Origin: Candidatus Azotimanducaceae bacterium
GTDB taxonomy: Bacteria > Pseudomonadota > Gammaproteobacteria > Pseudomonadales > Azotimanducaceae
Reading direction: 5' to 3'
Length of the DNA stretch: 64,000 bases
NCBI GenBank assembly: GCA_965206615.1
Contig: CBDBKI010000005.1
Span: forward strand, 2,387,318 to 2,451,317
Numbering within the stretch: position 1 is the stretch's first letter; each line of letters begins with the position of its first letter. The position numbers were made by a program, and so were the translations under genes. Shown one piece after another: positions 10,557-63,889 of the stretch. The notes under the pieces are model-generated. The model was given only the letters and a program-made list of their open reading frames with translations, was not told the DNA's origin and did not search any database.

Positions 10557-10646
10557 CAGCAGTTCTCATTTTAGCGATTGACTCATTTTGGTTTCGGGAT
10601 TCTCCGGGGTTTGTGATTCGGCGGTTGGTGTGGGCCTGCGGGGGCG

Positions 10647-15964: not shown

Positions 15965-16004
15965 CCCCGGTCGGGTGGGGATTCCCTCGCCACCGTCATG
16001 CAAA

Positions 16005-16030
16005 GGGGCGCCTCGGCGCCCCTTTTTTTT
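16005..16030 (+). terminator. Rho-independent terminator of the TBDR gene
   Basis: GGGGCGCC..GGCGCCCC palindrome followed by T8. The T8 run is the IS1595 target duplication. Confidence 0.65.
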
Positions 16031-16168
16031 GGGAATTATATACTTTACTCCCAAAGAAATTCTATACTTCCCCCATTGAATCAACGGCTTGTATGCAATG
16101 GACGACCACGTAACCGTCGTAAGCGTTCGGTAGCCGTGTGATGCGGGAGGCTGGACACATCCGGCGGA

Positions 16169-19666: not shown

Positions 19667-20087
19667 CGAAGGAACGCAAGCCCCGGTCGCCCCACCCGCA
19701 ACTCGACGCGTTCACGCGACGTGTACTCGACTACCGCCCCTCGAAGGAAGGCGGCAAGTCCAAGAATCCGAAAGGGCGCTCGCAAAAACGCCATCAAGGT
19801 GCACCGGACCCAGGCGCGGGCCAGCATCGACGTGCCGGGGTCGGCGTTCACCGTGACCGCGGAACGGCATGAGAAGGCGAGCCGGAGCCGGTGGCTCGTG
19901 GACGGCGCGGAGGTCAAGACGTGGATGCTCAGCCGCCGCGCATTGGAACCGTTGTTCTTTCCGGTGGGGGCGGGGTGATGGACGAACAGCGGCTGCATGG
20001 CCTTTAACGGTTTGGGGGAGTCAAATATATAATTCCCTTTTTTTTGCTCAATGTCGATCGGCGACAGGGGCCCCGGGGGCTCTCCTT

Positions 20088-47322: not shown

Positions 47323-48938
47323 GGGGTCGTCGCTTCTTCGCAGGCGCCGGCGGACCCCGGCTCGGCCCGGCCGGCGCCGGCAACGGGCGCCGCGCCGCTC
47401 CGGTCGGCAATCCGTATCTCGCGCAGCATGGGGTCGACATTGCGGCCCACCCGGACGCCCGCGAGCTTGTCCGCGTCGTAGATGACCAGGTCGTCGATCT
47501 GGAGATACACGACGGTCAGCGCGTCCTTCACTATCACGTTGAAGTACGCGCGGTAGTTCCGTTCGCGGAGTTCCTCGTCCAGGCTCGTGAGGGCTTCCGC
47601 GGCCAGTCGCTCGAGTCGCGGGTCCTCGTAGGCGAAGGGGTTGAAGGCGGCCCCGACGGACCAGATCGCCGGATGGCGGCTGTCGGGATCGAAGTTCGGA
47701 TAGCCGATCGCGTTCACCGGGTACTCGCGGGAGCGGGCGATCGCGGCGATGCTGGCCCCGTCGATGACCTTGATGCGCATGTCGATGCCGACGCGCTGCA
47801 GGTAGGCCTGCAGCGCCTCGTACGCTGCCGTACTGCCGGGTGATACGGGTATGGCGAAGGTGAACGTCTCGACGCCCGCTTCGTCCAGCAGGGCACGGGC
47901 GCGCTCGGGATCGTAGGAGAAGAACCCTTCGAGTTCCGGATTGTGTCCGAGGTTGCCGGCGGCCATGGGCTGCGAGGTGGGCCGTGCGTATCCGAAGAAC
48001 ACGGTGTCGGCGATGGCCTGGCGGTCCACGGCAAAACCGAGGGCCTGCCGGACCCTCGGGTCGCCCAGCTCCGGGACCAGTTCGCCGGCGCGGTCGAGGA
48101 TCGTGATCCCGAACCAGCGGTTCGAGGCGGAAGTGACGGCGAATCCCGCCTCCCGCGCCGGTGCGGCCTCCGCCGGCGTGACGAGGGCCATGTCGATCTG
48201 GCCGGAGATCATGGCGTTCAGGCGTGCGCGGATGTTGATGAGCAGATGGATGTCGAGCGGCGGCGCGTCGTCGAAGCCGGGCAGGAAGTAGTCCGGATTT
48301 GGCACGAAGCGCTGCACTTCGCCGTGCGTCGAGCGGTCGCGGTCGTAGATCCAGGGACCCGTGCCCACGGGGTTGAGGTCGAGGTCCGGGTTGTCGAACG
48401 CCGCGGGACTCACCATCAGCCCGGGCGAGTGGCTCAGGTTGTAGAGCAGCGTGGGGTCGGGATAGTGCAGGCGCACCCGCAACGTGTAGTCGTCCACGAC
48501 CTCTGCCGCGTCAATGGACGCGACGGTGTTGATCCGCGGCCCCTCGAGCCGGAACAGGCGGTCGATGTTGGCCTTGGCCGCATGGGCGTCGAACGGCTCG
48601 CCATCGATGAAACGGACGCCCCGGTGCAGCAAGAAGTCGATGGTCCGGTCGTCCCGCCATGTCCAGGAGGCCGCGAGACCGGGATGGGGCTTGAGCAGGT
48701 CCGCGATGTTGGTATGCGTCAGGCCGTCGTACACCAGCGTGAGGTAGGTGTAGTACTGCGGCCCGGTATCCGCCAGGTGCGGGTCGAAAGTCACCAGCGA
48801 GGTGCCGGTCCCGAAGCGGACGGTCTGCGTCGCGGTGTCCGCGAGCGGTCCGGACCCGGGCGTCGCATCGTCGCCCGGCGCGCAGCCCGGCATCGACAGG
48901 GCCGCGAGGAGCCAGACGGAAACCCGGCGGGAGAGCAC
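47316..48938 (-). CDS. Family-5 ABC substrate-binding lipoprotein, paralogue 1
   Basis: Lipobox LSMPGC, then RFGTGTSLVTFDPHLADTGPQYYTYLTLVYDGLT. GTG start 9 nt after the sulfatase stop. Confidence 0.8.
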   Translation of the reverse strand: MLSRRVSVWLLAALSMPGCAPGDDATPGSGPLADTATQTVRFGTGTSLVTFDPHLADTGPQYYTYLTLVYDGLTHTNIADLLKPHPGLAASWTWRDDRTIDFLLHRGVRFIDGEPFDAHAAKANIDRLFRLEGPRINTVASIDAAEVVDDYTLRVRLHYPDPTLLYNLSHSPGLMVSPAAFDNPDLDLNPVGTGPWIYDRDRSTHGEVQRFVPNPDYFLPGFDDAPPLDIHLLINIRARLNAMISGQIDMALVTPAEAAPAREAGFAVTSASNRWFGITILDRAGELVPELGDPRVRQALGFAVDRQAIADTVFFGYARPTSQPMAAGNLGHNPELEGFFSYDPERARALLDEAGVETFTFAIPVSPGSTAAYEALQAYLQRVGIDMRIKVIDGASIAAIARSREYPVNAIGYPNFDPDSRHPAIWSVGAAFNPFAYEDPRLERLAAEALTSLDEELRERNYRAYFNVIVKDALTVVYLQIDDLVIYDADKLAGVRVGRNVDPMLREIRIADRSGAAPVAGAGRAEPGSAGACEEATTPC

Positions 48939-48946
48939 GCCGCCCG

Positions 48947-50503
48947 CTACCAGATCAACTGCACGGTCTCGCCGTGGACCTCGGCGATCGTCGACAGCAG
49001 GGCCGGGCGGATCGGTGGGTCTGTCGGCAGGGTGGCGCCCCACTCGGCGTGCCGCGCAGCGAGCTCTTCCACCACGTCGGGATGCTGGTCGGCGAGGTTG
49101 ACGGTCTCTCCCGGGTCCGCGTCGAGGTCGTACAGCATCGTCAGGTGCCCGAGGGGCGCGTCGGTCGACCAGCCGCCGGCGGGTGCGTCGAGACGCCCCG
49201 TTGCGTTCAGGTCCCCGGCGGTCAGGCCGGTCCGCGTGTAGCGGATGAGCTTCCAGCGCGCGTCGCGAATGGCGATGTTGGGGCCGGCGCGCCAGTAGAG
49301 GTGTTCGTGGGGCCGGCCGTCGCGTTCGCCCCGGAGATAGGGCGACAGGTCCATGCTGTCCTCCGTGGTGACCGGGCTGCCGGCGGCGCCGGTGAAGGTC
49401 GCGAGCAGGTCGAGCGCGGTCACCGGTTCCTCGTAGACCTGCCCGGCCGGCAGTCCCGCGGGCCAGCTCAGGATGAAGGGAACGCGTATGCCGCCCTCGT
49501 GGTAGTAGCGCTTGAACCCCGCGTGCGGGGCGTTGGAACAGCCGCCGTCGACGTAGCTCGCGCAGCCGTTGTCCGAGAGGAAGGCGATCAGCGTGTTCTC
49601 GTACTGGCCGGTGTCGCGCAGCGCGGCGACCACGCGGGCCACGCTTTCGTCGAGGGAGCCCACCATGGCCGCGTACACCCGCGTCTTGGGATCCTCGATG
49701 TGGCGATAGGGCTCGAGATACCGGTCCGTCGCCTGGAACGGCGCATGCGGCGTCGCGTGACTGAGAAACAGGAAGAACGGGTCGTCGCGGTGGCGTTCGA
49801 TGAAGGCGACCGCCTCGTCGGTGAACGCGTCCGTCAGGTACTGCTCCACCTCGACCCGCTCGAAACCGCGGTACAGGGCAAAGTCGTCGGAGCGCTCCGT
49901 CAAGGGGGCGCCGACGGTCTCGGTGCCGGGCGTGCGCGAGTCGATGAAGATGTTGCTCCCGGCCGGGTAGCCGAAGTACTCGTCGAAACCGCGGCTCATC
50001 GGGTGGTGTTCGCGCCGGTAGCCGAGATGCCACTTGCCGACGATGCCCGTGGCATAGCCGAGGGACTTCAGCGCCTCGGCCACGGTGGTTTCCGCCGTGC
50101 TCATGCCGTACTCCTGGTCGTCCCCCCCGGTGGGGTTGAACTCCCAGCCATGACGCGCCTGGTAGCGGCCGGTGAGGATCCCGGCCCGCGACGGACTGCA
50201 CGTGGGATGGGTGACGTATCCGTCGGTCGCGCGCACGCCCGTGGCGGCGAGGGCGTCGATGTTCGGGGTGGAGATGACCTCGCCGCCATAAACGCCGACG
50301 TCGCCGATGCCGAGGTCGTCGGCGAAGATCAGCACGATGTTGGGGGCACCCTCCGCCGCCGCGGCGGCCGCAGGTCCGGAGGCGGCCGGTTCGGCGGCGT
50401 CATTGGTCGCGGTCGGTGGTTCGGAGCAGCCGGCAAGGAAGAGCGCCGCCGTCCCCAACAGGCAACGCCAAGACCTGCGCGAACTGGTGTGGAGCGCGTT
50501 CAT
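48947..50503 (-). CDS. Cys-type (formylglycine) sulfatase lipoprotein, paralogue 1
   Basis: Lipobox FLAGC, NIVLIFADDLG, CSPSRAGILTGRY, GKWHLG. Confidence 0.9.
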   Translation of the reverse strand: MNALHTSSRRSWRCLLGTAALFLAGCSEPPTATNDAAEPAASGPAAAAAAEGAPNIVLIFADDLGIGDVGVYGGEVISTPNIDALAATGVRATDGYVTHPTCSPSRAGILTGRYQARHGWEFNPTGGDDQEYGMSTAETTVAEALKSLGYATGIVGKWHLGYRREHHPMSRGFDEYFGYPAGSNIFIDSRTPGTETVGAPLTERSDDFALYRGFERVEVEQYLTDAFTDEAVAFIERHRDDPFFLFLSHATPHAPFQATDRYLEPYRHIEDPKTRVYAAMVGSLDESVARVVAALRDTGQYENTLIAFLSDNGCASYVDGGCSNAPHAGFKRYYHEGGIRVPFILSWPAGLPAGQVYEEPVTALDLLATFTGAAGSPVTTEDSMDLSPYLRGERDGRPHEHLYWRAGPNIAIRDARWKLIRYTRTGLTAGDLNATGRLDAPAGGWSTDAPLGHLTMLYDLDADPGETVNLADQHPDVVEELAARHAEWGATLPTDPPIRPALLSTIAEVHGETVQLIW

Positions 50504-52251
50504 GGCGGGGGCCCTGGGGATTCGAGGTCGTTCGAGTCTAGCAGTCCGGCGGACTCAAGTCTGCGCAGGGACGCGTCCGCGGCGGCCGGTCCGACGCCGG
50601 TGGAGCGGGCTAACGCCCTGGCGGCGGGTTTGACCCGTATCTCGCGCAGCAGGGGGTCGATGTAACGGCCGATCCGGACGCCAGTGAGCTTGTCCGCGTC
50701 ATAGATCACCAGGTCGTCGATCTGGAGGTACACCAGCGTGAGCACGTCCTTCACGACGACGTTGAAGTACTCGCGGTAGTTCCGCGCGCGCAGGTCCTCG
50801 TCCAGGCTGCGGATGGCTTCCGCGGCCAGCCGCTCGAGCCGCGGGTCCTCGTAGCCGAACGGGTTGAAGCCGGCGGTGACCGACCAGATGGCCGGATGGC
50901 GGCTGTCCGGATCGAAGTTCGGATAGCCGATGGTGTTCACGGGGTAGTCGCGGCTGCGGGCGAGCGCGGCGACGCTCCCGGGCTCGATGACCCTGATGCG
51001 CATGTCGATGCCGACGCGCCGGAGGTAGGCCTGCACGGTCTCGTACTGGGGGATGCTGCCGGCCGTCACGGGCACCGTGAACGTGAACGTGTCGATGCCC
51101 GCTTCGTCGAGCAGGGCCCGGGCACGGGCGGGATCGTAGGAGAAGAACGCCTCGAGTTCCGGGTCGTGCCCCAGGTTGCCGGGTGCCATCGGCTGCGAAG
51201 TGGGCCGCGCGTACCCGAAGTACACGGCGTCGGCGATGGCCTGGCGGTCCACGGCGAAGCCGAGGGCCTGCCGGACCCTTGCGTCGCCCATCTCGGGCAC
51301 CAGGTCGCCCGCGCGGTCCAGGATCGTCATCCCGAACCAGCGGTTTGCCCGGGAAGTGACGGCGAATCCTTGGTCCCGCGCCGGTTCGGCCTCCGTCGGT
51401 CCGACGATCGCCAGATCGATCTGGCCGGAGATCAGCGCGTTCAGGCGTGCGCGGTTGTTGACGAGCTCGTGGACGGCGATGGCCGGCGCGTCGGAGAAGG
51501 CGGGATCCCAGTAATCCGGGTTCGGTACGAAGTGCAGGACCTCGCCGAGGGTCGAACGGGCACGGTCATACAGCCAGGGGCCCGTACCCACCGGGTTGAG
51601 GTCGAGATCCGGGTTGTCGAACGCGGCGGGGCTCACCATCAGGCCCGGCGACAGGCCGAGGTTGTACAGCAGCGTCGGGTCCGGATAGTGCAGGTGCAGC
51701 CGGAGCGTGTACTCGTCCAGGACTTCCGCGGCGTACATGGACGCGACGGTGTTGATCCGAGGTCCCTTGAGCTCCATCAGGCGATCGATGTTCGCCTTGG
51801 CGGCGTGGGCGTCGAACCGCTCGCCGTCGATGAAGCGGACGCCCCGGCGCAACGTGAGGTCGATGGTGTTGTCGTTGGGCCACGTCCAGGACGTCGCGAG
51901 GCCCGGATCCGGCTCGAAGGGGCTCTCGATGTCGAGGCCCGTCAGGCCGTCGTACACGAGCGTGAGGTAGGTGGAGAACTGCGGCCCCGTGTCGGCCAGG
52001 TGCGGGTCGAAGGTCACCATCGAATTCGAGGTCCCGAAACGCAGGGTCTGCGCGGTCGTCACGACGGGAAGTCCCGACCTGGCCACCTGGTCGTCGTCCG
52101 AGCAGGCGGGGAGCCACAGGCATGCGAGCAGGAGTAGGGGACGGGCTTGTCCCGTCCCGTGCCGAACTACCCACGATACCCGGCGGCGGGCGACGACGAG
52201 CGTCGCCCCCACAGGTCTGTTCCGTGCAGCACAGGAAGTGGCGTTCGGCAC
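50500..52251 (-). CDS. Family-5 ABC substrate-binding lipoprotein, paralogue 2 (start uncertain)
   Basis: Lipobox WLPAC, then RFGTSNSMVTFDPHLADTGPQFSTYLTLVYDGLT. The only in-frame ATG/GTG codons upstream of the lipobox lie inside or beyond the REP element at 52134-52212. Confidence 0.75.
   Translation of the reverse strand: MPNATSCAARNRPVGATLVVARRRVSWVVRHGTGQARPLLLLACLWLPACSDDDQVARSGLPVVTTAQTLRFGTSNSMVTFDPHLADTGPQFSTYLTLVYDGLTGLDIESPFEPDPGLATSWTWPNDNTIDLTLRRGVRFIDGERFDAHAAKANIDRLMELKGPRINTVASMYAAEVLDEYTLRLHLHYPDPTLLYNLGLSPGLMVSPAAFDNPDLDLNPVGTGPWLYDRARSTLGEVLHFVPNPDYWDPAFSDAPAIAVHELVNNRARLNALISGQIDLAIVGPTEAEPARDQGFAVTSRANRWFGMTILDRAGDLVPEMGDARVRQALGFAVDRQAIADAVYFGYARPTSQPMAPGNLGHDPELEAFFSYDPARARALLDEAGIDTFTFTVPVTAGSIPQYETVQAYLRRVGIDMRIRVIEPGSVAALARSRDYPVNTIGYPNFDPDSRHPAIWSVTAGFNPFGYEDPRLERLAAEAIRSLDEDLRARNYREYFNVVVKDVLTLVYLQIDDLVIYDADKLTGVRIGRYIDPLLREIRVKPAARALARSTGVGPAAADASLRRLESAGLLDSNDLESPGPPP
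52134..52212. repeat. REP-like double-hairpin element, copy c
   Basis: GTAGGGGACGGGCTTGTCCCGTCCC ... GGGCGACGACGAGCGTCGCCCCCAC. Confidence 0.7.
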
Positions 52252-52266
52252 CGATCGTCGTATCTG

Positions 52267-53823
52267 CTAGTAGATCAACTGCACGACCTCGCCGTCGACC
52301 TCGGCGAGGGTCGACCCCAAGGCGGGCAGGATTGCCGGGTCCGTGGGCAGGGTGTCGACCCACGCCGCGTGCTGCGCCGAGAGCCGTTCGACCACGTCGG
52401 GATGTCGGCTGGCCAGGTTGACGGTCTCTTCCGGGTTCGCGTCGAGGTCGTAGAGCATCGTCACGTGCCCGAGCGGCGCGTCGGCCGACCAGCCGTCGGC
52501 CGGCGGCGTGAGGCGCCCGGCCTCGCCGAGGTCTTCGGCCGTCAAGTCCGTCCGCCGGTAGCGGATGAGCTTCCAGCGCTCGTCACGGATGGCCGCGGTC
52601 GGGCCGGCGCGCCAGTACAGGTGGTCGCGGGGCCGCCCGTCGCGTTCTCCCCGGAGATACGGCAACAGGTCGACGCTGTCCTCCGTGGTCACGGCGTTTC
52701 CGGCGGCGCCCGTGAACGTCGCCAGCAGGTCGAGCGAGATCACCGGCTCCCCGTAGACCTGGCCGGCCGGGAGCCCGGCCGGCCAGCTCAGGATGAACGG
52801 AATCCGCACTCCACCCTCGTGGTGGTACCGCTTGAAGCCTGCGTGCGGGGCGTTGGAGCAGGCCTGGCCGATGTAAGCCGCGCAGCCGTTGTCCGACAGG
52901 AAGGCGATCAGGGTATTGTCGTACTGGCCGATCTCCCGGAGCGTGGCCACGACACGGGCGACGCTCTCGTCGAGGGACCCCACCATCGCCGCGTAGACGC
53001 GCGTGGCCGGATCCTCGATATGCCGATACGGCTCGAGATAGCGCTCCGTCGCCTGCAGCGGCGTGTGCGGGGTGGTGTGGCTGAGGTAGAGGAAGAACGG
53101 CTCCTCGCGGTGGCGGTCGATAAAGGCGACCGCCTCGTCGGTGAACGCGTCGGTCAGGTATTCCTCCACCTCGACGGTTTCGAAGCCGCGCGACACCCCG
53201 TAGCGCTCCGGCCGCTCCGTCAACGGTCGACCGACGGTCTCCGTGCCCGGCGTGCGCGAGTCGATGAAGATGCTGCCCCCGGCCAGGACGCCGAAGTACT
53301 CGTCGAAACCGCGGCTCATCGGGTGGTGCTCGCGCTCGTGGCCGAGGTGCCACTTGCCCACCATGCCGGTGGCGTAGCCGAGCGCCTTGAGTTCGTTGGC
53401 GAAGGTGCTCTCGTCCGTGCTCAGGCCGGCGGTGAGGTCGCGTCCGTCCGGGTTGAACTCCCAGCCGTGGCGCGCCTGGTAGCGCCCGGTCAGCAAGCCG
53501 GCGCGGGACGGGCTGCACACGGGGTGCGAAACGTATCCTTCGGTCGCCCGCACCCCCGCGGCCGCCAGAGCGTCGATGTTCGGCGTCGAGAACACTTCTC
53601 CGCCGTAGACGCCGACGTCGCCGATGCCGAGATCGTCGGCGACGATCAGCACGATGTTGGGCGCGCGTTCGGCGGAAGCGGGCGCCGCGGAGCCATCCGC
53701 CGGCTTGGCGGAGGTTGGGGCCGGATCGCCACAACCGGCGAGCAACAGCGCCGGCAGCGCCGCGACAGCCATGCGGCGCGCGAAACGGCGGGCCGATACG
53801 ATGGGTGTGCGAGGTGGCTGCAT
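52267..53823 (-). CDS. Cys-type sulfatase lipoprotein, paralogue 2
   Basis: MQPPRTPIVSARRFARRMAVAALPALLLAGC, CSPSRAGLLTGRY. Confidence 0.9.
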   Translation of the reverse strand: MQPPRTPIVSARRFARRMAVAALPALLLAGCGDPAPTSAKPADGSAAPASAERAPNIVLIVADDLGIGDVGVYGGEVFSTPNIDALAAAGVRATEGYVSHPVCSPSRAGLLTGRYQARHGWEFNPDGRDLTAGLSTDESTFANELKALGYATGMVGKWHLGHEREHHPMSRGFDEYFGVLAGGSIFIDSRTPGTETVGRPLTERPERYGVSRGFETVEVEEYLTDAFTDEAVAFIDRHREEPFFLYLSHTTPHTPLQATERYLEPYRHIEDPATRVYAAMVGSLDESVARVVATLREIGQYDNTLIAFLSDNGCAAYIGQACSNAPHAGFKRYHHEGGVRIPFILSWPAGLPAGQVYGEPVISLDLLATFTGAAGNAVTTEDSVDLLPYLRGERDGRPRDHLYWRAGPTAAIRDERWKLIRYRRTDLTAEDLGEAGRLTPPADGWSADAPLGHVTMLYDLDANPEETVNLASRHPDVVERLSAQHAAWVDTLPTDPAILPALGSTLAEVDGEVVQLIY

Positions 53824-53897
53824 GGCTCGATGATCCCACGGAATCGACGGCGGTCCAGCGTATCATGCGGGCCGTTTGCCAACAGCGGGAGCGCGCT

Positions 53898-54329
53898 ATG
53901 TCCGAGATCCACGACCACGCCGACGAGCACAGCGACGACATCGTGGCGGCCCCGGGCCCGGAGCGCGAGGCCCTCGCGGCGCTCATCGGTTACATGGATG
54001 CCTGGAACCGGCGCGACATCGACGGCATGAACGCCGCCTTCCACTTCCCGCACGTACGCGTCGCGAGCGGGCGCATCCACCTGCTGGAGTCGCCGCTGTC
54101 GCGTGCCCCGGACTTCTTCGAGAAGTTCATCGCGGCGACGGGCTGGGACTACAGCCTGTGGGACTACCGGCGCGCCGTGCAGAGCACCGACGACAAGGTG
54201 CACTTCGCGGTGCAGTTCACGCGCTATCGCGCCGACGGCAGCGTGATCGGCGTCTATCCCTCGATGTGGATCGTCGCGGAGATCGACGGTCGTTGGGGGG
54301 TACAGGCGCGCTCGAGTTTCGCTCCGTAG
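53898..54329 (+). CDS. Small NTF2/SnoaL-like fold protein
   Basis: 143 aa: MSEIHDHADEH...LIGYMDAWNRRDIDGMNAAFHFPHVRV...IVAEIDGRWGVQARSSF. The fold call is by pattern only. It is divergent from sulfatase 2. Confidence 0.55.
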   Translation: MSEIHDHADEHSDDIVAAPGPEREALAALIGYMDAWNRRDIDGMNAAFHFPHVRVASGRIHLLESPLSRAPDFFEKFIAATGWDYSLWDYRRAVQSTDDKVHFAVQFTRYRADGSVIGVYPSMWIVAEIDGRWGVQARSSFAP

Positions 54330-54403
54330 GGGACGGGCTTGTCCCGTCCCGCGCCGGGTTCGTGCACGGTCGCGAGACGGGCGACCGCAAGGGTCGCCCC
54401 TAC
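54326..54403. repeat. REP-like double-hairpin element, copy d
   Basis: GTAGGGGACGGGCTTGTCCCGTCCC ... GGGCGACCGCAAGGGTCGCCCCTAC. It overlaps the stop codon of the NTF2-like gene. Confidence 0.7.
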
Positions 54404-54451
54404 GGGTCTGTTCCGTGCGGCAGGGGCGTTCGGCACCGATCGGGGTACCTG

Positions 54452-56008
54452 CTAGAAGATCAGCTGCACCGTCTCGCCGTCGACCTCGACGAGCGTCGAC
54501 CGCACGGCGGGCAGGATCGGCGGCTCGGTGGGCAGCGTGCCGACCCATTCGGCGTGGCGCGCGGTGAGCCGTTCGACCACGTCGGGGTGTTCGCTCGCCA
54601 GGTTGACGGTCTCGCCCGGGTCCGCGTCCAGGTCGTACAGCATCGTGAGGTGCCCGAGCGGCGCGTCGGTCGGCCAGCCGTCGGCCGGCGGGGTGAGGCG
54701 CCCGGTCTCGTCGAGGTCCTCCGACGTGAAGTCCGTGTGCCGGTAGCGGACGAGTTTCCAGCGCTCGTCGCGGATCGCCGCGTTGGGGCCCGAGCGCCAG
54801 TACAGATGGTCGTGGGGCCGGCCGTCGCGCTCGCCGCGGAGATAGGGCAGCAGGTCGACGCTGTCCTCCGTGGTCACGGCGCCGCCGGCGACGCCCGTGA
54901 ACGTCGCCAGCAGGTCGAGCGAGATCAGCGGCTCTCCGTAGACCTGGCCGGCGGGCAGTCCGTCGGGCCAGCTCAGGATGAAGGGGATCCGCACGCCGCC
55001 CTCGTGGTGGTAGCGCTTGAAGCCCGCGTGCGGGGCGTTGGAGCAGGCCTGGCCGATGTAGCCCGCGCAGCCGTTGTCCGACAGGAAGGCGATCAGGGTG
55101 TTGTCGTACTGGCCGATCTCCCGGAGCTTGGCGACGACGCGGGCAACGCTCTCGTCGAGGGAACCCACCATGGCCGCGTAGATGCGGGTCGCGGGGTCCT
55201 CGATGTGCCGGTAGGGCTCGAGGTAGCGCGCCGTCGCCTGCAGGGGCGTGTGCGGCGTCGTGTGGCTGAGGTAGAGGAAGAACGGCTCGTCGCGGTGCCG
55301 GTCGATAAAGGCGACCGCCTCGTCGGTGAAGGCGTCGGTCAGGTATTCCTCCACCTCGACCATTTCGAAGCCGCGATACACCCCGGAGCGTTCGGGCCGT
55401 TCCGTCAACGGGGGGCCGACGCTCTCCGTGCCCGGCGTGCGCGAGTCGATGAAGATGCTGCCCCCGGCCAGGACGCCGAAGTACTCGTCGAAACCGCGGC
55501 TCATCGGGTGGTGCTCCCGCTCATAGCCGAGGTGCCACTTGCCGACCATGCCGGTCGCGTAGCCGAGCGCCTTGAGTTCGTCGGCGAAGGTGCTCTCATC
55601 CGTGCTCAACCCCGCGGTGAGGTCCCGTCCGGCCGGGTTGAACTCCCAGCCGTGGCGCGCCTGGTAGCGCCCGGTCAGCATGCCGGCGCGGGACGGGCTG
55701 CACACGGGGTGCGAAACGTATCCCTCGCTCGCCCGCACCCCCGCTGCCGCGAGAGCGTCGATGTTCGGCGTCGAGATCACTTCTCCGCCGTAGACGCCCA
55801 CGTCCCCGATGCCGAGGTCGTCGGCGAAGATCAGTACGATGTTGGGCGCGCGCTCGGCGGGAGCGGGCGCCGCGGAGCCATCCGCCGGCTCGGCGGGGGT
55901 TGGGGCCGGTTCGTCACACCCGGCGAGCAGCAGCACCGGCAGCGCTGCGGCAGCAATGCGCCGCGCGAAACGGCGTGCCGATACGATCGGTGTGCGAGGT
56001 GGCTGCAT
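54452..56008 (-). CDS. Cys-type sulfatase lipoprotein, paralogue 3
   Basis: MQPPRTPIVSARRFARRIAAAALPVLLLAGC, CSPSRAGMLTGRY. Long stretches are identical to paralogue 2. Confidence 0.9.
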   Translation of the reverse strand: MQPPRTPIVSARRFARRIAAAALPVLLLAGCDEPAPTPAEPADGSAAPAPAERAPNIVLIFADDLGIGDVGVYGGEVISTPNIDALAAAGVRASEGYVSHPVCSPSRAGMLTGRYQARHGWEFNPAGRDLTAGLSTDESTFADELKALGYATGMVGKWHLGYEREHHPMSRGFDEYFGVLAGGSIFIDSRTPGTESVGPPLTERPERSGVYRGFEMVEVEEYLTDAFTDEAVAFIDRHRDEPFFLYLSHTTPHTPLQATARYLEPYRHIEDPATRIYAAMVGSLDESVARVVAKLREIGQYDNTLIAFLSDNGCAGYIGQACSNAPHAGFKRYHHEGGVRIPFILSWPDGLPAGQVYGEPLISLDLLATFTGVAGGAVTTEDSVDLLPYLRGERDGRPHDHLYWRSGPNAAIRDERWKLVRYRHTDFTSEDLDETGRLTPPADGWPTDAPLGHLTMLYDLDADPGETVNLASEHPDVVERLTARHAEWVGTLPTEPPILPAVRSTLVEVDGETVQLIF

Positions 56009-56081
56009 GGCTGGACGGTCCACGGAATCAATGTCCGTCCAGCGTAACATGCGGGCCGTTTGCCGAAACCGGGAACGCGCC

Positions 56082-56168
56082 ATGTCCGAGATCCACGATC
56101 ACGCCGACGAGCACAGCGACGACATCGTGGCGGCTCCGGGGCCGGAGCGCGAAGCCCTCGGGGCACTC
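56082..56168 (+). pseudogene. 5' remnant (about 29 codons) of a second NTF2-like gene copy
   Basis: MSEIHDHADEHSDDIVAAPGPEREALGAL matches 53898-53984. Homology then ends in a half REP element. Confidence 0.75.
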
Positions 56169-56195
56169 AACGTCCCGTCTCGAAATGCGTGCACG

Positions 56196-56233
56196 GTGCC
56201 GAGACGGGCGACCACGAGGGTCGCGCCTACGGG
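56196..56233. repeat. REP-like element, copy e (second hairpin half only)
   Basis: CGTGCACGGTGCCGAGACGGGCGACCACGAGGGTCGCGCCTAC parallels the right half of copy d. Confidence 0.55.
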
Positions 56234-57834
56234 GTCTCCGCGGGCAGCCGCAGCCGCACGTCCCACAGCATGTAACGGTCCACCCGCACGCCGGTCAGCT
56301 TGTCCGGGTCGTACACCACGATGTCGTCGACATGCACCAGGGGGAGTGACAGCACCTGCTTGACGACGATGTTGAAGTACTCCCGGTAGTGACGCGCGCG
56401 CAGTTCCTGGTCGAGGCTGCGCCGCGCCTCGCGGCCGAGCTGCTCGAGCCGCGGCTCCTCGTAATGGAACGGATTGAACCCGGCCGTCGCCGACCAGATC
56501 GCCTGGTGGCGGCTGTCGGGGTCGAAGTTGGGATAGCCGATGGTGTTCACCGGATACTCCCGCGTCCGCGCCATGGCCTCGATCGTGCCGGGCTCGATGA
56601 CCTTGATGCGCATATCGATCCCCACGTTGCGCAGGTAGGCCTGGAGAGCCTCGTACAGGGCGGTGTTGTGCGGTAGCACGGGGACCGTGAAAGAGAAGCC
56701 GTCGACGCCGGCTTCGGCGAGCAGGGCGCGTGCCCGGTCCGGGTCATGGGAGAAGAAGCCCTCGAGGGACGGGTCGTGGCCCAGCCCCGGCAGCATGGGC
56801 TGGAACGCCGGACGGGCGTAGCCGAGGAACACGGTGTCGGCGATGGCCTGGCGGTCCACGGCAAAGCCGATGGCCTGGCGTACGCGGGCGTCACCGAGTT
56901 CGGGCACCAGTTCGCCGGCCCGGTCCAGGATCGTCAGGCCGAGCCAGCCGTTCGAGTGCGCGGAGATCCCGAAGCCCCTGGCCAGCGCCGGCGCCGCTTC
57001 GGCCGGCCTCACCTCGGCGAGATCGATCTGTCCGGAGATCAGGGCGTTGAGCCGCGCCCGGTTGTTGACCAGCGGGCGGATGGCGATGGGCGGGGCGTCC
57101 TGGAAGGCCGAATCGTGGTAGTCCGGGTTGGGCACGAAGCGGTGCACCTCGCCGATGGCGGAGTTCGCGCGGTCGTACCGCCAGGGCCCGGTCCCGACGG
57201 GGTCGAGGTCGAGGTCGGGGTTGTCGAATGCCGCGGGACTCACCATCAGCCCCGGCGACATGCCCAGGTTGTAGAGCAGCGTCGGGTCCGGGTAGTGCAG
57301 GTGCAGGCGCAGCGTGAAGTCGTCCAGCGCCTCGGCTGAGTACATCGATGCGACCGTGTTGATGCGCGGCCCCTCGAGGCGCATGAGCCGTTCGATGTTG
57401 GCCTTCGCCGCATGGGCGTCGAACCGCTCTCCGTCGATGAACCGGACGTCGCGGCGCAGTTGCAACTCCACCGTGGTCGGGTCGGGCCAGCTCCAGGACG
57501 CGGCCAGGCCCGGGTAAGGCTTGGAGAAGTCGGCGGTGTTGAGCCGCGTCAGGCCGTCATAGACGAGGACGAGGTAGGTTTCGAAGGGCGCCCCGGTGTC
57601 CGCGAGGTGCGGGTCGAAGGTGACGAGGGGCGTGCCCGTTCCGAAACGAACGGTCCGATCCGCGGGCACGGCGTCGCCGGGGCGCCCCGTCTCGTGCCCC
57701 GCCCTTGAGCATGCGGACAACGAGAACACGGCGACGGCGCACAGGGCCGCCGAGAGTACCGCCCGGCCCGGCCGGCAAGCCCGGCGTCGTGCCACGGGCG
57801 TTGGCCCGGCGCAGGCCGTCCGACTCCTGCTCAA
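56227..57834 (-). CDS. Family-5 ABC substrate-binding lipoprotein, paralogue 3
   Basis: Lipobox SLSAC, then RFGTGTPLVTFDPHLADTGAPFETYLVLVYDGLT. The TTG start overlaps the upstream stop (TTGA). Confidence 0.8.
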   Translation of the reverse strand: MSRSRTACAGPTPVARRRACRPGRAVLSAALCAVAVFSLSACSRAGHETGRPGDAVPADRTVRFGTGTPLVTFDPHLADTGAPFETYLVLVYDGLTRLNTADFSKPYPGLAASWSWPDPTTVELQLRRDVRFIDGERFDAHAAKANIERLMRLEGPRINTVASMYSAEALDDFTLRLHLHYPDPTLLYNLGMSPGLMVSPAAFDNPDLDLDPVGTGPWRYDRANSAIGEVHRFVPNPDYHDSAFQDAPPIAIRPLVNNRARLNALISGQIDLAEVRPAEAAPALARGFGISAHSNGWLGLTILDRAGELVPELGDARVRQAIGFAVDRQAIADTVFLGYARPAFQPMLPGLGHDPSLEGFFSHDPDRARALLAEAGVDGFSFTVPVLPHNTALYEALQAYLRNVGIDMRIKVIEPGTIEAMARTREYPVNTIGYPNFDPDSRHQAIWSATAGFNPFHYEEPRLEQLGREARRSLDQELRARHYREYFNIVVKQVLSLPLVHVDDIVVYDPDKLTGVRVDRYMLWDVRLRLPAETP

Positions 57835-58235
57835 GTTTCGAAGAACGCCAGCGTGCGCACCTCGATGCGCTCACGCTCCGACGCGTCCGCGGGACCGGTC
57901 GGGTCGTCGAAGGCCGAATGCGCCGTGAAGCGCGCGCGGCCGTCCCGCATCGAGTCGTAGCACTTGAGCAGCATGGCCTCGTCCGTGCGCATTTCCAGCA
58001 CGTAGAACCAGCGGTGGTCCGGGTTGTACAGCAGCGAGTAGATCTCGCCTTCCCGGTCCAGGGACAGGGTGTCGACCGCGGCACGGGCGTCGGCTACCGC
58101 CATCGTGTGCGTCTCGCCGGCCGGCGAGTGCTCGGGGTGCCTTTGCCGGCCTCTCTCGCTCAGGAAGTAGCCAGGCTTTCGGGCGGGCCTCTCGATGTAG
58201 TGGAAGGCGGCTTCGAGCCGGTGTGCGGCGTCCAT
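57831..58235 (-). CDS. CmcJ/NvfI-family oxidoreductase-like protein, about half normal length (possibly an internally deleted pseudogene)
   Basis: The C-terminus NPDHRWFYVLEMRTDEAMLLKCYDSMRDGRARFTAHSAFDDPTGPADASERERIEVR matches my recollection of the family. The central ~120 residues seem absent. Confidence 0.45.
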   Translation of the reverse strand: MDAAHRLEAAFHYIERPARKPGYFLSERGRQRHPEHSPAGETHTMAVADARAAVDTLSLDREGEIYSLLYNPDHRWFYVLEMRTDEAMLLKCYDSMRDGRARFTAHSAFDDPTGPADASERERIEVRTLAFFET

Positions 58236-58878: not shown

Positions 58879-59020
58879 GCGTTCGTGAGCCTATGTCGTC
58901 CTTGTGCCGCAACGTTAACCGAACGTGGGGCACCGCGAAAAGGAGGACGAAGGGGGGCGTGCCGGGCCGGTCCCGCAGTGCCTGCGTGATAAGCTCCGTC
59001 CCTTTTTTGGGGAGCGATCC

Positions 59021-60571
59021 ATGAATGGCGCCGAGAGCCTGCTGCGCACGCTGGTCGCCCACGGCGTGGACGTGTGCTTCGCAAATCCGGGCACGTCGGA
59101 GATGCACCTCGTACAGGCGATCGACGCGGTCGACGAGACGCGCGGCGTGCTGTGCCTGTTCGAGGGCGTCTGCACCGGCGCCGCGGACGGCTACGCGCGC
59201 ATGCAGCGGCGGCCGGCGACCACGCTCCTGCACCTCGGCGCCGGGTTGGCGAACGGGGTGGCGAACCTGCACAACTGCCGCCGGGCGGACTCGCCGCTCA
59301 TCAACATCATCGGCGACCACGCCATTCATCACGTGCCCTACGACGCGCCGCTCACGTCGGACATCGAGGCCGTCGCGAAGCCGGTCTCGGCGTGGATCCG
59401 CACGGCGCGCACGTCCGAGGGGCTGGCCCTGGACGCCGTCGACGCGGTGCGCGCCTCGCTGGCGCCCAATCCCATGCCGCGTGGCGGGATCGCGACACTC
59501 ATCGTGCCGGTCGACGCCGCGTGGGGCGAGGGTCGTCCAAGGGCCAGGGATCCGGGTTTCGATGCATCGATGGCGAAGCCCGTCGTGGCCGACGACGTCG
59601 TCGAGGCGGTCGCGCCGCGGATCGACGCCGACACCCTGCTCATGATCGACGGCAACGCCCTGACCGAAGCCGGCGTGCGCGCGGCCGGCCGCATCGCCGC
59701 CGCGACGGGCTGTCGCCTCTACACACCGACGTTTCCGGCGCGTGTCGAGGCGGGACCGGACCTGCCGCTCGTGGAACGGTTGCCGTACTTCCCCGAGCAC
59801 GTCATGCAGGTGCTGGCGTCCGTCAAGAAGCTCGTGCTCGCGGGAGCGCAGTCGCCGGTCAGTTTTTTCGCCTATCAGAACCTGCCCAGCGACCTCGTCC
59901 CGGAGCATTGCGAGACGATCCGGCTCGCCCATCGACACGAGGACGTGATGGCCGCGCTCACGGGCGTTGCCGACGCGCTCGACGCGCCCGCGGGAACAGG
60001 CCCGGGCGGACAGCGCCCCGACAAACCGCAGGGCGATCTGTCGGCCGGCAGCATCGCGCAGCTGCTTGCCGTCCACGCGCCGGAGAACAGCATCATGTCC
60101 ACGGACTCGGGCGGCGGCGGCGCGGCGTTCCCGTTGCTGCAGCGCTGCCTGCGGCACAGCTGGCTCAACCTGACCGGCGGTTCCATCGGCGACGGCGGTC
60201 CGATCTCGGTGGGCGCAGCGATCGCCTGCCCGGACCGTCAGGTATTCGCGTTGCTCGGCGACGGCGGGGCGATGTACACGAACCAGTACCTGTGGACCGC
60301 TGCCCGCGAGGGCCTGAACATCGTGACCGTCATCTTTTCGAACCGTCAGTACAACATCCTCGAAGTGGAGTACCGGCGGCTCGGCATCAACGAGATCGGG
60401 CGTGACGCGGCCAGCCTCTTCGACCTCGGCAACCCGGACCTGGACTGGGTGGCCCTCGCGGCGGCGCAGGGCGTCCCCGGGGCGCGCGCGACGACCTGCG
60501 AGGAGTTCGATACCGCGCTCGGGAGAGCGTTGGCAAGCGATGGGCCGTACCTGATCGAAGCGGTGGTATAG
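59021..60571 (+). CDS. Thiamine-pyrophosphate enzyme of the acetolactate synthase large-subunit family
   Basis: MNGAESLLRTLVAHGVDVCFANPGTSEMHLV... and the TPP motif LLGDGGAMYTNQYLWTAAREGLNIVTVIFSNRQYNIL. ATG 59021 is preceded by GGGGAG. Confidence 0.85.
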   Translation: MNGAESLLRTLVAHGVDVCFANPGTSEMHLVQAIDAVDETRGVLCLFEGVCTGAADGYARMQRRPATTLLHLGAGLANGVANLHNCRRADSPLINIIGDHAIHHVPYDAPLTSDIEAVAKPVSAWIRTARTSEGLALDAVDAVRASLAPNPMPRGGIATLIVPVDAAWGEGRPRARDPGFDASMAKPVVADDVVEAVAPRIDADTLLMIDGNALTEAGVRAAGRIAAATGCRLYTPTFPARVEAGPDLPLVERLPYFPEHVMQVLASVKKLVLAGAQSPVSFFAYQNLPSDLVPEHCETIRLAHRHEDVMAALTGVADALDAPAGTGPGGQRPDKPQGDLSAGSIAQLLAVHAPENSIMSTDSGGGGAAFPLLQRCLRHSWLNLTGGSIGDGGPISVGAAIACPDRQVFALLGDGGAMYTNQYLWTAAREGLNIVTVIFSNRQYNILEVEYRRLGINEIGRDAASLFDLGNPDLDWVALAAAQGVPGARATTCEEFDTALGRALASDGPYLIEAVV

Positions 60572-60597: not shown

Positions 60598-61926
60598 ATG
60601 ACTTCATCCTCCGCGCCCCGTCCCTCCGGCGCGATCGAAATGCCGTCGCCGGCGGCCGGCGCTGCGACGCGCGGCAATCACCCCTACTACGTCCTGGCCC
60701 TTCTCTTCCTGGCGTACACGTTCAGCTTCGTCGACCGCCAGATCCTGTCGATCCTGTTCGAGCCCATCAAGCTGGAGATGGGCCTGTCGGACACGCAGCT
60801 CGGCTTCCTCGGGGGACTCGCCTTTGCGCTCTTCTATGCGACGCTCGGCTTGCCCATCGCGATGTTCGCCGACCGCAGCGTACGCACCCGGATCATCACC
60901 GCGTCGCTGGTGGTGTTCTCGCTCATGACGGCGCTCTGCGGTCTGGCGCAGAACTTCTGGCAGCTCGCGCTTGCCCGGGTCGGGGTGGGCGTGGGCGAGG
61001 CGGGCGTCAACCCGTCAAGCCACTCGATCATCGCGGACATCTTCCCGCCCGAGCGCCGCTCGACGGCCATGGGCGTGATCGCCGTGGGCGCCAATGCGGG
61101 AATGCTCCTCGGCATGGCCGCCGGCGGCATCCTGAGCGTCCTGTACGGCTGGCGGGTCGCCATCATGGCGGTGGGCCTGCCGGGCCTGCTGCTGGCGCTG
61201 ATCTTCTGGCTGACGGTGCGCGAGCCGGTGCGCGGCGCCTCGGAGCAGCGTTCGGCGCAGGAGAAAGCCCCGCCGATCGGCGAAACGCTGACCTACATGT
61301 GGCGCAACAAGGCGATGCGCCACCTGGTGATCGGCTCCATGCTCAAGGGCACCGCGGGGTACGGTCTGGTGTCCTGGATGCCGTCGTTCTTCATGCGCAC
61401 CCACGAACTGACGGCCGCCCAGGTCGGGCTGCTGCTGGCGATAGGCATGGGAGTCCTGGGCGGTCTCGGTGCGTTCCTTGGCGGCTACCTCAACGACCGG
61501 CTGTCGAAACGCCGCGCGGGCGCGGGCCTGGCCGCCATCGCCGTCATTACCGCCGGCGTGTTTCCGTTCTCCGTGGCGGCCTATCTGGTGGACGACTTCC
61601 GGATCGCGGTAGCCCTGTTCGTCATCCCACTGTTCGGCGGCAACATGTTTCTCGCGCCCGGGCTCGCCCTGATCCAGAGCCTGGCGCGGCTACGCATGCG
61701 CGCGGTCGCCTCCGCCGTGAAGATGCTGACGCTCAACCTGATCGGCCTCGGGCTCGGCCCTCAGGTGGTGGGCATCCTGAGTGACGTGTTGCGCCCGACC
61801 CTCGGGACCGACTCGCTGCGGGTCGCCATGGTGGTTGTGGGCTCGCTCGCCGTGTGGGGTGCGGTGCACTTCTACCTGTCGAGCAGGCACATGCGGGAAG
61901 GGCTCGCCCAGGCCCGGCAGGGATGA
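60598..61926 (+). CDS. MFS transporter
   Basis: 442 aa with about 12 TM segments. FVDRQILSILFEPIK and the LPIAMFADR loop are typical of Spinster-like MFS proteins. Confidence 0.85.
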   Translation: MTSSSAPRPSGAIEMPSPAAGAATRGNHPYYVLALLFLAYTFSFVDRQILSILFEPIKLEMGLSDTQLGFLGGLAFALFYATLGLPIAMFADRSVRTRIITASLVVFSLMTALCGLAQNFWQLALARVGVGVGEAGVNPSSHSIIADIFPPERRSTAMGVIAVGANAGMLLGMAAGGILSVLYGWRVAIMAVGLPGLLLALIFWLTVREPVRGASEQRSAQEKAPPIGETLTYMWRNKAMRHLVIGSMLKGTAGYGLVSWMPSFFMRTHELTAAQVGLLLAIGMGVLGGLGAFLGGYLNDRLSKRRAGAGLAAIAVITAGVFPFSVAAYLVDDFRIAVALFVIPLFGGNMFLAPGLALIQSLARLRMRAVASAVKMLTLNLIGLGLGPQVVGILSDVLRPTLGTDSLRVAMVVVGSLAVWGAVHFYLSSRHMREGLAQARQG

Positions 61927-61975
61927 GGGGAATCCGCTGCATCGCGCCTGAACGGTCGCCGGGAGGAAGACGTTA

Positions 61976-63169
61976 GTGGTCAGACTGTCGGACCTGCCGG
62001 ACTACGAGCGGGCACACCTGCTCGAGAAGAACCTCGTACCCCTCGGTCGCACCCCGTGGGTGGCCCCCGGGACGCCGCTGGCGCAGCGCAAGGTCGCTCT
62101 GGTGACCACCGCGGGATTGCACCGCCGTACGGACACCGCTTTCGATCTGACGGACGCGACCTACCGCGTTCTCCCGGGCGACTTGACGGGCGCGGACCTC
62201 GTCATGTCGCACAGCTCCGTCAACTTCGACCGCTCCGGCTTCCAGGAGGACGCGAACCTGGTCTTCCCCATCGACCGGTTCCGTGAGCTGGCGGAAGAGG
62301 GCGTGGTAAGAAGCCTCGCCTCGAACCATTACAGCTTCATGGGAGCGGGACTATTGCCCGAGGCCTATGCAGCGCCGGCCCGGGGTTTGGCGAAGGTGCT
62401 GCACCGGGACGGGGTCGACACCGCGTTCCTGACACCGGTCTGACCCAACTGCACCCGCGCCGTGAGCGCGGTGGCCCACTACCTGGAGGACGAGGGCATC
62501 GCCACGACCGGCATCAGCCTGGTGCGCGAGAACACCGAGGCCCTGCGGCCGCCGCGATTCCTGTGGGTCACGTTTCCGCTCGGCCGGCCGCTCGGCATGC
62601 CGGGCGACGCCGCGTTTCAGCGGCGTGTCGTGCTCGCGGCGCTGGCGCTGCTCGATGCGCCGCACGGGCCGGTACTGGCGGACTATCCGGAGGATGTCCC
62701 GGATGCAGCCACGAGCGAAGCAGCCGCCTGCCCGGTGAGTTTCCCGGCGCGGGTAGAGCAGGACGGAAGCTGGGCTGCGTCGCTGCGCGCGGAGGTCGAT
62801 CTGCTGCAGCCGTGGTACGCGCTGTCGCTCGAGCGCCGCGGGCGCACGACGGTGGGGCTCGCCGGCGCGCCGGTCGAACGGCTTGCCGAGCGGTTCGGTG
62901 GGTTGCTCGACGGAGGCGGCGTGCCGGAGGGCTTCGATGCACTGCAGGACACCAAGCGCGCCCTGGAAGACCTGAAGGCGTTTCACCAGGAGGCGGTGAC
63001 CGCACAGCCCGGGGACATGCCGTGGCGGGAGGTGCGTCGCGTGCTCTGGCGGGAGACCGTGCTCGGCGAAGGCATGATCGTGTTGCGGGACCGCTTCGAG
63101 GCTTCCGGGAATCAGATGCTACGGGCCTTTACGCGCGTGCTCGTGCCGCGCGGGGCGCTTGAGGACTGA
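61976..63169 (+). CDS. GrdB/PrdB-family (reductase selenoprotein B-like) protein; candidate selenoprotein with Sec at TGA 62441-62443
   Basis: The two track ORFs (61976-62443 and 62462-63169) share one frame, and the 18 nt between them have no stop. Read-through gives ...AFLTPV-U-PNC-TRAVSAVAHYLEDEGIATTG..., which parallels the U-x-x-C-T-R...E..GI segment of GrdB as I recall it. GTG start after GGGAGGAAG. Confidence 0.6.
62452..62474 (+). promoter_or_regulatory. Candidate bacterial SECIS hairpin
   Basis: Six contiguous G:C pairs (62455-62460 with 62466-62471) close the loop CGUGA (62461-62465). A:U and C:G pairs extend the stem across a bulge. The hairpin starts 11 nt after the first base of UGA. 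Confidence 0.45.
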
Positions 63170-63277: not shown

Positions 63278-63889
63278 ATGCTGAAGCTGCACTTCGCGCC
63301 CGGTTCCCGCGCCGGCCGGATCGTCTGGCTGCTCGAAGAACTCGGGTTGCCCTACGAGATGAACAAGATGGCCTTTCATCCGAAGGACCTGAAGTCCGAC
63401 GAACACCGGGCGCGCCATCCGCTCGGCAGGGTGCCCGTGCTGGACGACGGCGACGTTCGGATCTTCGAATCCGGCGCCATCGTGGAGTACGTGCTGGAAC
63501 GCCACAGGAACGGCGGCCTGAAGCCGGCGGTGGACGCCCCGGAGTTTCCGATGTACCTGCAGTGGTTCCACTACTGCGAGGGCATGGTGATGCCGCCCGT
63601 GAACACGATCATCGTGCAGACCGTGCTGCTGCCGCCGGAACGCCGTGACGAGACCGCGCTCGGGCAGGCGCAGCGCCTGTTGACGCGATCGCTCGCACCG
63701 GTCGATCAGAACCTCGAGGGCAGGGACTACCTGATCGGGGACTTCTCGGCGGCGGACATCATGCTCGGCCACGCCTGCTTCATGAGCAACCGCCTCGGCT
63801 GCGTGACCGACGAGATGGCGAACCTGAAGGCGTACGTGGAACGCATCACGGCGCGTCCCGCGTTCCAGACGGCGATCACGATGCAATAG
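63278..63889 (+). CDS. Glutathione S-transferase family protein
   Basis: MLKLHFAPGSRAGRIVWLLEELGLPYE..., GRVPVLDDGDVRIFESGAIVEY. 203 aa. Confidence 0.85.
   Translation: MLKLHFAPGSRAGRIVWLLEELGLPYEMNKMAFHPKDLKSDEHRARHPLGRVPVLDDGDVRIFESGAIVEYVLERHRNGGLKPAVDAPEFPMYLQWFHYCEGMVMPPVNTIIVQTVLLPPERRDETALGQAQRLLTRSLAPVDQNLEGRDYLIGDFSAADIMLGHACFMSNRLGCVTDEMANLKAYVERITARPAFQTAITMQ

Follow-up and report, generated by a model that had tools for sequence, protein, structure and literature searches.

Does the in-frame TGA at positions 62441-62443 of a 64,000-nt stretch of Candidatus Azotimanducaceae DNA (contig CBDBKI010000005.1; the whole stretch is hereafter the window) divide two genes, mark a decayed one, or encode selenocysteine (Sec)? 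The codon lies between two open reading frames (ORFs) on the forward strand, which a first-pass annotation made from the sequence alone had joined into one selenoprotein of 397 residues resembling GrdB and PrdB. Our comparative analysis supports this joining. Judged from the aligned Sec/Cys column, the conserved UGA, and a covarying hairpin, 61976-63169 is very probably a single gene whose in-frame UGA encodes Sec via SelB-dependent insertion.

One reading frame interrupted by a single UGA

The upstream ORF (61976-62443; GTG start, 155 codons, terminal TGA at 62441-62443) and the downstream ORF (62462-63169; 235 codons) share one frame, and the 18 nt between them after the TGA are stop-free, as the first-pass annotation had stated. 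The U-x-x-C motif that it read across the gap, TPV-U-PNC-TRA, was also borne out, the joined frame of 397 residues containing ...LTPV-U-PNC-TRA... with Sec at codon 156. No disruption other than this TGA was found in the gene, and its start codon position is common to relatives, which have ATG, GTG, or TTG there. The features of the gene, all on the + strand, are listed with the evidence for each.

61962..61966, +, Shine-Dalgarno-like GGAGG, 9 nt before the GTG start (sequence)
61976..63169, +, complete predicted selenoprotein gene, 397 codons plus stop TGA 63167-63169 (read-through frame; full-length Cys homologs; ratio of nonsynonymous to synonymous substitution rates, dN/dS)
62036..62650, +, predicted PrdB/GrdB-homology catalytic domain, residues 21-225 (TIGR04483, PF07355, prdB alignments)
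62441..62443, +, UGA codon 156, probably read as Sec (PrdB Sec151 column; Cys in homologs)
62450..62452, +, codon of Cys159, putative resolving Cys of U-x-x-C (invariant in alignments A1 and A5; equivalent to the C of U-G-T-C in genuine PrdB)
62455..62471, +, candidate selenocysteine insertion sequence (SECIS) element (RNAalifold consensus, covariation, codon-position entropy)
62663..63166, +, subfamily-specific C-terminal domain, residues ~230-397 (absent from PrdB; conserved in long homologs)
62729..62731, +, codon of Cys252 (A-C-P-V motif), start of the C-terminal domain (invariant in A1 and A5)

TGA is the stop codon of 25 of the 42 genes called in the window, including the terminal stop of 61976-63169 itself; any recoding would therefore be local, with the genetic code unchanged. 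When the window was scanned for in-frame TGA codons with a relaxed threshold on GC content at third codon positions and a hairpin filter, 61976-63169 was retrieved, together with no other credible selenoprotein candidate.

The UGA falls in the Sec/Cys column of the GrdB/PrdB superfamily

Profile searches were run on the protein with Cys in place of the stop. The Pfam family GRDB (PF07355) matched residues 33-153 at 34 bits, above its gathering cut-off of 22, and ran as far as model position 345 (of 347), which left the match three residues short of the Sec codon. The best NCBIfam model was D-proline reductase PrdB (TIGR04483; E = 8.6e-33), whose match to residues 21-225 spanned the TGA and whose score of 113.7 bits was far under the equivalog cut-off of 300. 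The GrdF, GrdH, and GrdB models gave weaker NCBIfam matches than PrdB, and TIGR01918 ('various_sel_PB') scored 41.2 bits, not reaching its curated cut-off of 65.45. These profile matches place the predicted protein in a divergent branch of the GrdB/PrdB superfamily, in keeping with the family resemblance first proposed.

Codon 156 aligned exactly with Sec151 of Peptoclostridium acidaminophilum PrdB (LTPV-U-PNC-TR vs. FTAG-U-GTC-HR). Homology to this 237-aa protein stopped near residue 225, and annotated prdB genes showed 31 to 37% identity to the window protein (tblastn, annotated plasmids). Cys occupied the TGA column in every full-length proteobacterial homolog. The roughly 100 full-length homologs (415-430 aa, 50-57% identity, 99-100% coverage) all read PV-C-PNC-[T/S]R, so that the Cys homologs that the first-pass annotation expected in Proteobacteria exist, and U or C does occupy this column.

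Conservation of the UGA and purifying selection on both halves

To place the gene among its orthologs, we scanned one genome per GTDB species and obtained 80 loci, the closest being those of Candidatus Azotimanducaceae and other Pseudomonadales metagenome-assembled genomes (MAGs) within the Gammaproteobacteria. Orthologs with TGA or TGC at the same codon had been anticipated; the codon was TGA in 52 of the 80 loci and TGC or TGT in 28, and at no locus was it TAA or TAG. TGA was kept in all 57 distinct Sec-type sequences, which derive from independent assemblies and several orders. Sec-type genes were found in Pseudomonadales (Azotimanducaceae and the K189A clade), Burkholderiales, some Alphaproteobacteria, and single Myxococcota and Limisphaerales bins, and Cys-type genes in Halieaceae and Luminiphilus, SAR86, many Alphaproteobacteria, and Limnohabitans. 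Between the window gene and members of its clade, dS reached 0.8 to 1.1, with dN/dS of 0.12 to 0.18 for the N-terminal half and 0.13 to 0.25 for the C-terminal half. Purifying selection on both halves indicates that both are translated and constrained, which speaks against a pseudogene to the point of exclusion.

The closest relatives (70-94% identity) were present in the protein collection only as C-terminal fragments of ~236 aa, and their contigs carried a 155-codon ORF, TGA, 18 nt, and then a 236-240-codon ORF. The gene does escape standard gene callers, as had been suspected: the gene was mis-split in every relative seen in the searched protein collection, from which the 397-residue selenoprotein is missing. 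A TGA, an alignment to Cys homologs, and the conserved CGCGC-NGUNN-GCGCG hairpin described below together make a simple rule for repairing this annotation.

Some members of the family differ in copy number or motif. Tandem Sec-type paralogs, ~1.2 kb apart and each with TGA and hairpin, occurred in MAGs of Alphaproteobacteria and Rhodospirillaceae (L074, positions 4959 and 6192; L083, positions 4585 and 5818). A Burkholderiales-type motif, U-P-N-C-T-C, with an extra Cys two residues past the resolving Cys, was found at loci L073, L076, L078-L082, L086-L090, and L045. These Burkholderiales-type variants had an extended 6-bp SECIS stem (GUGCGC-CGUGG-GCGCAC), and in L080 and L089 U-P-[L/V]-C replaced U-P-N-C.

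A covarying hairpin follows the UGA

The minimum free energy fold of 62435-62500 paired 62452-62455/62457-62460 with 62466-62473, in background DNA of 68% GC. Since the stability of this single sequence was not significant, the hairpin was judged by comparative tests, using a gap-free alignment of the 57 distinct Sec-type sequences (A3) and, as the control, 27 Cys-type sequences over the same columns. RNAalifold on A3 returned one helix, 62456-62460 with 62466-62470, extendable by 62455:62471. The conserved core consists of the helix 62455-62460/62466-62471 (CCGCGC/GCGCGG) and the loop 62461-62465 (CGUGA), 11 nt past the UGA. The GC-rich SECIS-like hairpin of the first-pass annotation was upheld, as was its distance of 11 nt from the UGA; its extent was not, being 62455-62471 instead of 62452-62474.

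Across the Sec-type set, 89.2% of cells in the 6-pair helix were paired, and the covariation score of 0.169 (0.091 shuffled) was reached by none of 500 shuffles; slid helix registers scored far lower than the actual one. Compensatory changes were seen at three pairs (C-G 39, U-A 8, and U-G 2; G-C 54, A-U 2, and U-A 1; G-C 16, C-G 11, and U-A 3). In the Cys-type control, 47.5% of cells were paired and nothing rose above shuffles. Third-codon-position entropy at codons +5 to +8 was 0.13 to 0.55 bits in Sec-type genes vs. 0.83 to 1.93 in Cys-type genes, and outside codons +1 to +9 it was equal in both (1.35 vs. 1.36); synonymous variation was suppressed at the hairpin in TGA-type genes only. The apical loop of the Sec-type sequences was always N-G-U-N-N, with G and U invariant.

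A spacing of ~11 nt and a G in the loop are requirements of the Escherichia coli fdhF element and of bacterial SECIS predictors, and the G-U in the apical loop of fdhF is essential. Like the fdhF SECIS, the candidate hairpin lies in coding sequence just 3' of the UGA, is set off from it by 11 nt, and has G-U in its apical loop; unlike it, the candidate has a much shorter stem and a loop of 5 nt (NGUNN), and it lacks a conserved bulged U. From these features we infer that the hairpin at 62455-62471 acts as a bacterial SECIS.

Selenocysteine machinery beside family members

The window and related loci were scanned for Sec machinery with E. coli SelA, SelB, and SelD as queries and with ARAGORN. 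On a Burkholderiales chromosome (L080), selA, selB, and tRNA-Sec(UCA) (14387-17202) lie 5 to 8 kb from the Sec-type gene, and in a Burkholderiales MAG (L089) tRNA-Sec and the end of selB (8227-8820) lie 1.3 kb from it. The Sec trait and the PrdB-like selenoprotein may therefore travel together in these two Burkholderiales MAGs. A Pseudomonadales locus (L029) carries selD (13863-14996) 5 kb from the Sec-type gene. The catalytic codon of this selD is an in-frame TGA (SRTCG-U-AGK); by this reading, the L029 selD is itself a predicted selenoprotein gene. Most of the 120 best database relatives of the L029 SelD were ~320 aa, a length that fits cutting at the same UGA.

Weighing the alternatives

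Several observations weigh against Sec insertion at this locus. The 64-kb window held no selA, selB, selC (tRNA-Sec), or selD, nor any tRNA gene, and the search with the L029 SelD gave no match on contigs of the window's clade among its 120 best hits. As a single sequence, the hairpin was no stabler than its shuffles (z = +0.74; 157 of 200 folded equally well or better), its conserved stem is short at 5 to 6 bp, and it matched no Rfam family, whether the window was searched at the gathering threshold or 62380-62560 at a relaxed E-value.

The simplest other reading is that of two genuine genes, a 155-residue protein ending at the TGA and, beginning at GTG 62462, a second protein of 235 residues. 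Gene callers do annotate relatives in this way, and GTG 62462 is conserved inside the window's own clade. This GTG is, however, the G-U-G of the hairpin loop, and in 6 of the 57 Sec-type sequences it is GTC or GTT, which is no start; the 18 nt before it are without a purine-rich ribosome-binding site or Shine-Dalgarno sequence. Orthologs therefore did not appear as true gene pairs with start signals of their own. The conserved PNCTRA motif is spelled out by the six would-be intergenic codons, in which every change is synonymous or conservative; the split would part residue 156 (Sec/Cys) from the resolving Cys159, and the Cys-type homologs are single polypeptides. We consider two genes very improbable. 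A pseudogene or sequencing error, by which a Cys codon (TGC or TGT) became TGA, would need one base change and would agree with the failure to find Sec machinery for the window's genome in the scan and SelD search above. It has to contend with the recurrence of TGA in 57 distinct sequences from independent assemblies of several orders, with the lack of further disruptions, with dN/dS of 0.12 to 0.25 on both halves at dS ~1, and with a hairpin co-conserved in TGA-type genes only, and its probability is close to nil, the lowest we assign.

The UGA could also be read through without Sec, by near-cognate suppression (Trp or Cys) or under a reassigned code, and the case for Sec insertion does consist of sequence comparison. 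TGA is nevertheless the commonest true stop in the window and also terminates this gene, the column is Sec in the experimentally studied PrdB, the SECIS-like element is conserved, and sel genes and tRNA-Sec(UCA) stand beside family members in other genomes; such read-through is a little less credible still than a pair of genes. Similarly remote is a bona fide D-proline reductase PrdB paired with PrdA in Stickland-type proline reduction. PrdB is the best NCBIfam match, with an identical Sec column and U-x-x-C, and the Joint Genome Institute (JGI) labels homologs 'D-proline reductase (dithiol) PrdB'. Against this stand the score far below the equivalog cut-off, a length of 397 aa vs. 237 aa, and neighbors in aerobic marine lineages that include an O2-dependent dioxygenase, glutathione S-transferases (GSTs), and sulfatases. 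Moreover, when the PrdA-like ORF of Peptoclostridium served as tblastn query against the window and 90 related loci (1.21 Mb together), no PrdA homolog was found (best E = 1.2).

A selenoprotein probably distinct from proline reductase

The single gene with a probable Sec codon was then compared with characterized members of the superfamily. Genuine PrdB is a protein of ~26 kDa in tight complex with the pyruvoyl protein PrdA from the same cluster, and its U151C variant is inactive (PMC11229817). The gene immediately before prdB in Peptoclostridium is a PrdA-like ORF that contains the pyruvoyl cleavage motif HALT-C-VGPS (L093, 4590-5934); the PLSDB gene table for P. acidaminophilum plasmid EAL2_808p leaves this ORF out. 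Like PrdB of Clostridium sticklandii, C. difficile, and P. acidaminophilum, in which a SECIS downstream of the UGA is expected, the window protein has the homologous region (~21-225), the same Sec column, and U-x-x-C. Unlike the single-domain PrdB, it carries an extra domain of ~170 residues, and unlike PrdB of anaerobic Stickland fermentation, its gene has no PrdA nearby and has aerobic-type neighbors.

Its N-terminal domain also aligns with the C-terminal half of GrdB, GrdF, and GrdH (~435 aa; PF07355, TIGR01917/01918; model ~225-424), including the Sec region, and by analogy it may share their chemistry, the reductive cleavage of a C-alpha-heteroatom bond. Unlike GrdB, the window protein is without the N-terminal half, and it has UPNC-TRA (UPNC-TC in Burkholderiales) vs. 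UxxCxxC. No GrdA, GrdC, GrdD, or GrdE was present among the annotated flanking genes or annotated recurrent neighbor clusters. Because PrdA is not found nearby, the C-terminal domain is additional, the profile score is under the cut-off, and the neighbors are of aerobic type, the window protein is probably not a classical D-proline reductase.

Selenoproteins of this kind have been cataloged in marine surveys. In the Sargasso Sea, 'proline reductase PrdB', with UxxC, was the third most abundant selenoprotein family (42 Sec, 1 Cys; Zhang, Fomenko & Gladyshev 2005, PMC1088965), and in the Global Ocean Sampling (GOS) data the pfam07355 PrdB was among the most abundant (235 Sec, 110 Cys; Zhang & Gladyshev 2008, PMC2398784). 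A later marine survey assigned 6.4% of selenoprotein genes to PrdB (PMC9402790). The window gene resembles the family of the 2005 and 2008 surveys in its pfam07355 domain, U-x-x-C motif, marine habitat, and excess of Sec over Cys (here 52:28), and we infer that it belongs to this marine 'PrdB' family. It is thus one more member of a group of PrdB-like marine selenoproteins already cataloged in 2005 and 2008. In the surveys the family was classed by homology as proline reductase, its architecture, partners, and SECIS not being analyzed; these three papers and a 2026 review (PMC13188914) stop at the name assigned by homology and do not discuss its architecture, its partners, or what it does. A targeted literature search found no functional study of the subfamily and no link to TauD.

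A helical C-terminal domain

The C-terminal domain of ~170 residues is conserved in all long homologs, with C252, W266, R288, T291, G294, P345, and G346 invariant, and matched no Pfam or NCBIfam family. A confident AlphaFold model (predicted local distance difference test score, pLDDT, 87.9) of P0002, a Cys homolog with 57% identity, shows this domain as mostly alpha-helical. No solved relative was found in the PDB, either by sequence-profile search or by Foldseek of the P0002 model. As predicted from sequence and model, the window protein is a PrdB-like Sec domain joined to a helical domain specific to the proteobacterial subfamily.

Genes surrounding the family

Neighbors of the family gene were identified by de novo ORF clustering across the 80 genome loci. 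The most conserved was a TauD/TfdA-family Fe(II)/2-oxoglutarate dioxygenase, found in 46 of the 80 loci ~30 nt downstream, 49 of its 51 copies being on the strand of the family gene. Sulfatases (22-27 loci) and three GST types (12-16 loci each) also recurred, as did an alpha/beta hydrolase, a flavin-containing monooxygenase (FMO)-like protein, a VTT/DedA membrane protein, and a glutathione-dependent GFA protein. Six loci had a molybdopterin oxidoreductase (cluster 18) beside the family gene. The close relative L008 has a PhyH-family dioxygenase gene inserted right after the selenoprotein gene, with a molybdopterin oxidoreductase nearby (10751-11704, 16106-18385). The apparently aerobic neighborhood described in the first-pass annotation is supported by the oxygen-dependent partner genes (dioxygenase, monooxygenase) at related loci.

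In the window, the selenoprotein gene stands third in a same-strand run with short gaps, between the following genes.

58925..60571, +, thiamine pyrophosphate (TPP)-dependent enzyme, acetolactate-synthase-like (Pfam TPP_enzyme_N, TPP_enzyme_C; NCBIfam NF005760, 673 bits)
60598..61926, +, major facilitator superfamily (MFS) transporter, putative operon partner, 49 nt upstream of the selenoprotein gene (Pfam MFS_1, E = 5e-53)
63278..63889, +, GST, 108 nt downstream of the selenoprotein gene (Pfam GST_N, GST_C)

The MFS transporter is syntenic in the window's clade, and the TPP enzyme in that clade only. The true start of the TPP enzyme is probably near 59021 and not at GTG 58925, because the first residue in the family match is 33 and relatives have a length of 516 aa. 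At 9 loci the family gene is adjoined by a homolog of the GST (72-92% identity); L018, L057, L065, and L084 among these do not belong to the window's clade. Weaker GST matches (25-30%) lie beside the family gene in five more. In syntenic relatives, GST-like and TauD-family genes follow on the opposite strand, at a position beyond the window's end, with TauD ~1.8 kb off.

Just upstream of this run, the - strand at 47538-57834 carries three tandemly diverged sulfatase paralogs (48947-50503, 52267-53823, 54452-56083; 82-89% DNA identity), with two SBP_bac_5 solute-binding proteins (50500-52251 and 56227-57834) within the array. This region has the appearance of an island for taking up and hydrolyzing sulfate esters beside the selenoprotein operon. 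The adjoining 134-aa ORF at 57831-58235 (-) matches a CmcJ/NvfI-family oxidoreductase model at positions 190-263 of 263 only, and its syntenic counterpart in L004 (4991-5809) is a complete protein of 272 aa; truncation, a frameshift, or a miscalled start may account for the short copy in the window. Insertion sequence (IS) elements occupy 1511-5193, 10556-12706, 16169-17980, and 18918-20044. One pair of copies is identical (3515-5193 and 11028-12706; 100% over 1679 nt), with a DDE_Tnp_1 transposase in the longer copy. A second pair (1888-2833 vs. 19109-20044; 98.4%) encodes an IS1595-family transposase, truncated in the second copy, and an IS66-family transposase lies at 16169-17980. TonB-dependent receptor genes (36-1400, 5274-7637, 12779-15964) sit amid these elements, and the whole may represent a composite mobile region or a duplication introduced during assembly.

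Proposed mechanism and function

From the anatomy of the locus and the comparative signal, the hairpin at 62455-62471 would recruit SelB-GTP-Sec-tRNA(Sec) to the ribosome, and the UGA at 62441-62443 would be recoded. By analogy with the superfamily, the U156 selenolate would most likely attack an electrophilic carbon of a small substrate and cleave a carbon-heteroatom bond. The adduct may then be resolved by Cys159, leaving a selenenyl-sulfide (Se-S bond) that some thiol system would re-reduce to regenerate the enzyme, glutathione being a candidate in view of the neighboring glutathione transferases. The TauD-family dioxygenase, GST, and sulfatase neighbors point to marine heterotrophs that catabolize an organic sulfate, sulfonate, or amine in an oxygen-dependent manner, and we tentatively tie the substrate to TauD-type hydroxylation and sulfate-ester/sulfonate metabolism.

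It is conceivable, if rather doubtful, that marine 'PrdB' is a PrdA-independent two-domain selenoenzyme working with TauD-family dioxygenases, GSTs, and sulfatases in the oxygen-dependent degradation of an organic sulfate, sulfonate, or quaternary-amine compound that is abundant in the sea. Two points count against this functional proposal: its chemistry and substrate class are drawn entirely from analogy and gene neighborhood, and in the window's clade the GST replaces the directly adjacent TauD gene.

In published surveys, 'PrdB' is among the most abundant selenoprotein families of the surface ocean and is filed under proline reductase by homology alone. Our evidence argues that this name is wrong, and the role of a selenium-dependent enzyme in aerobic marine bacteria becomes a testable question. 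If the proposed function is true, the family would represent a new aerobic, selenium-dependent carbon-heteroatom cleavage and would explain the retention of Sec in bacteria of the oxic ocean.

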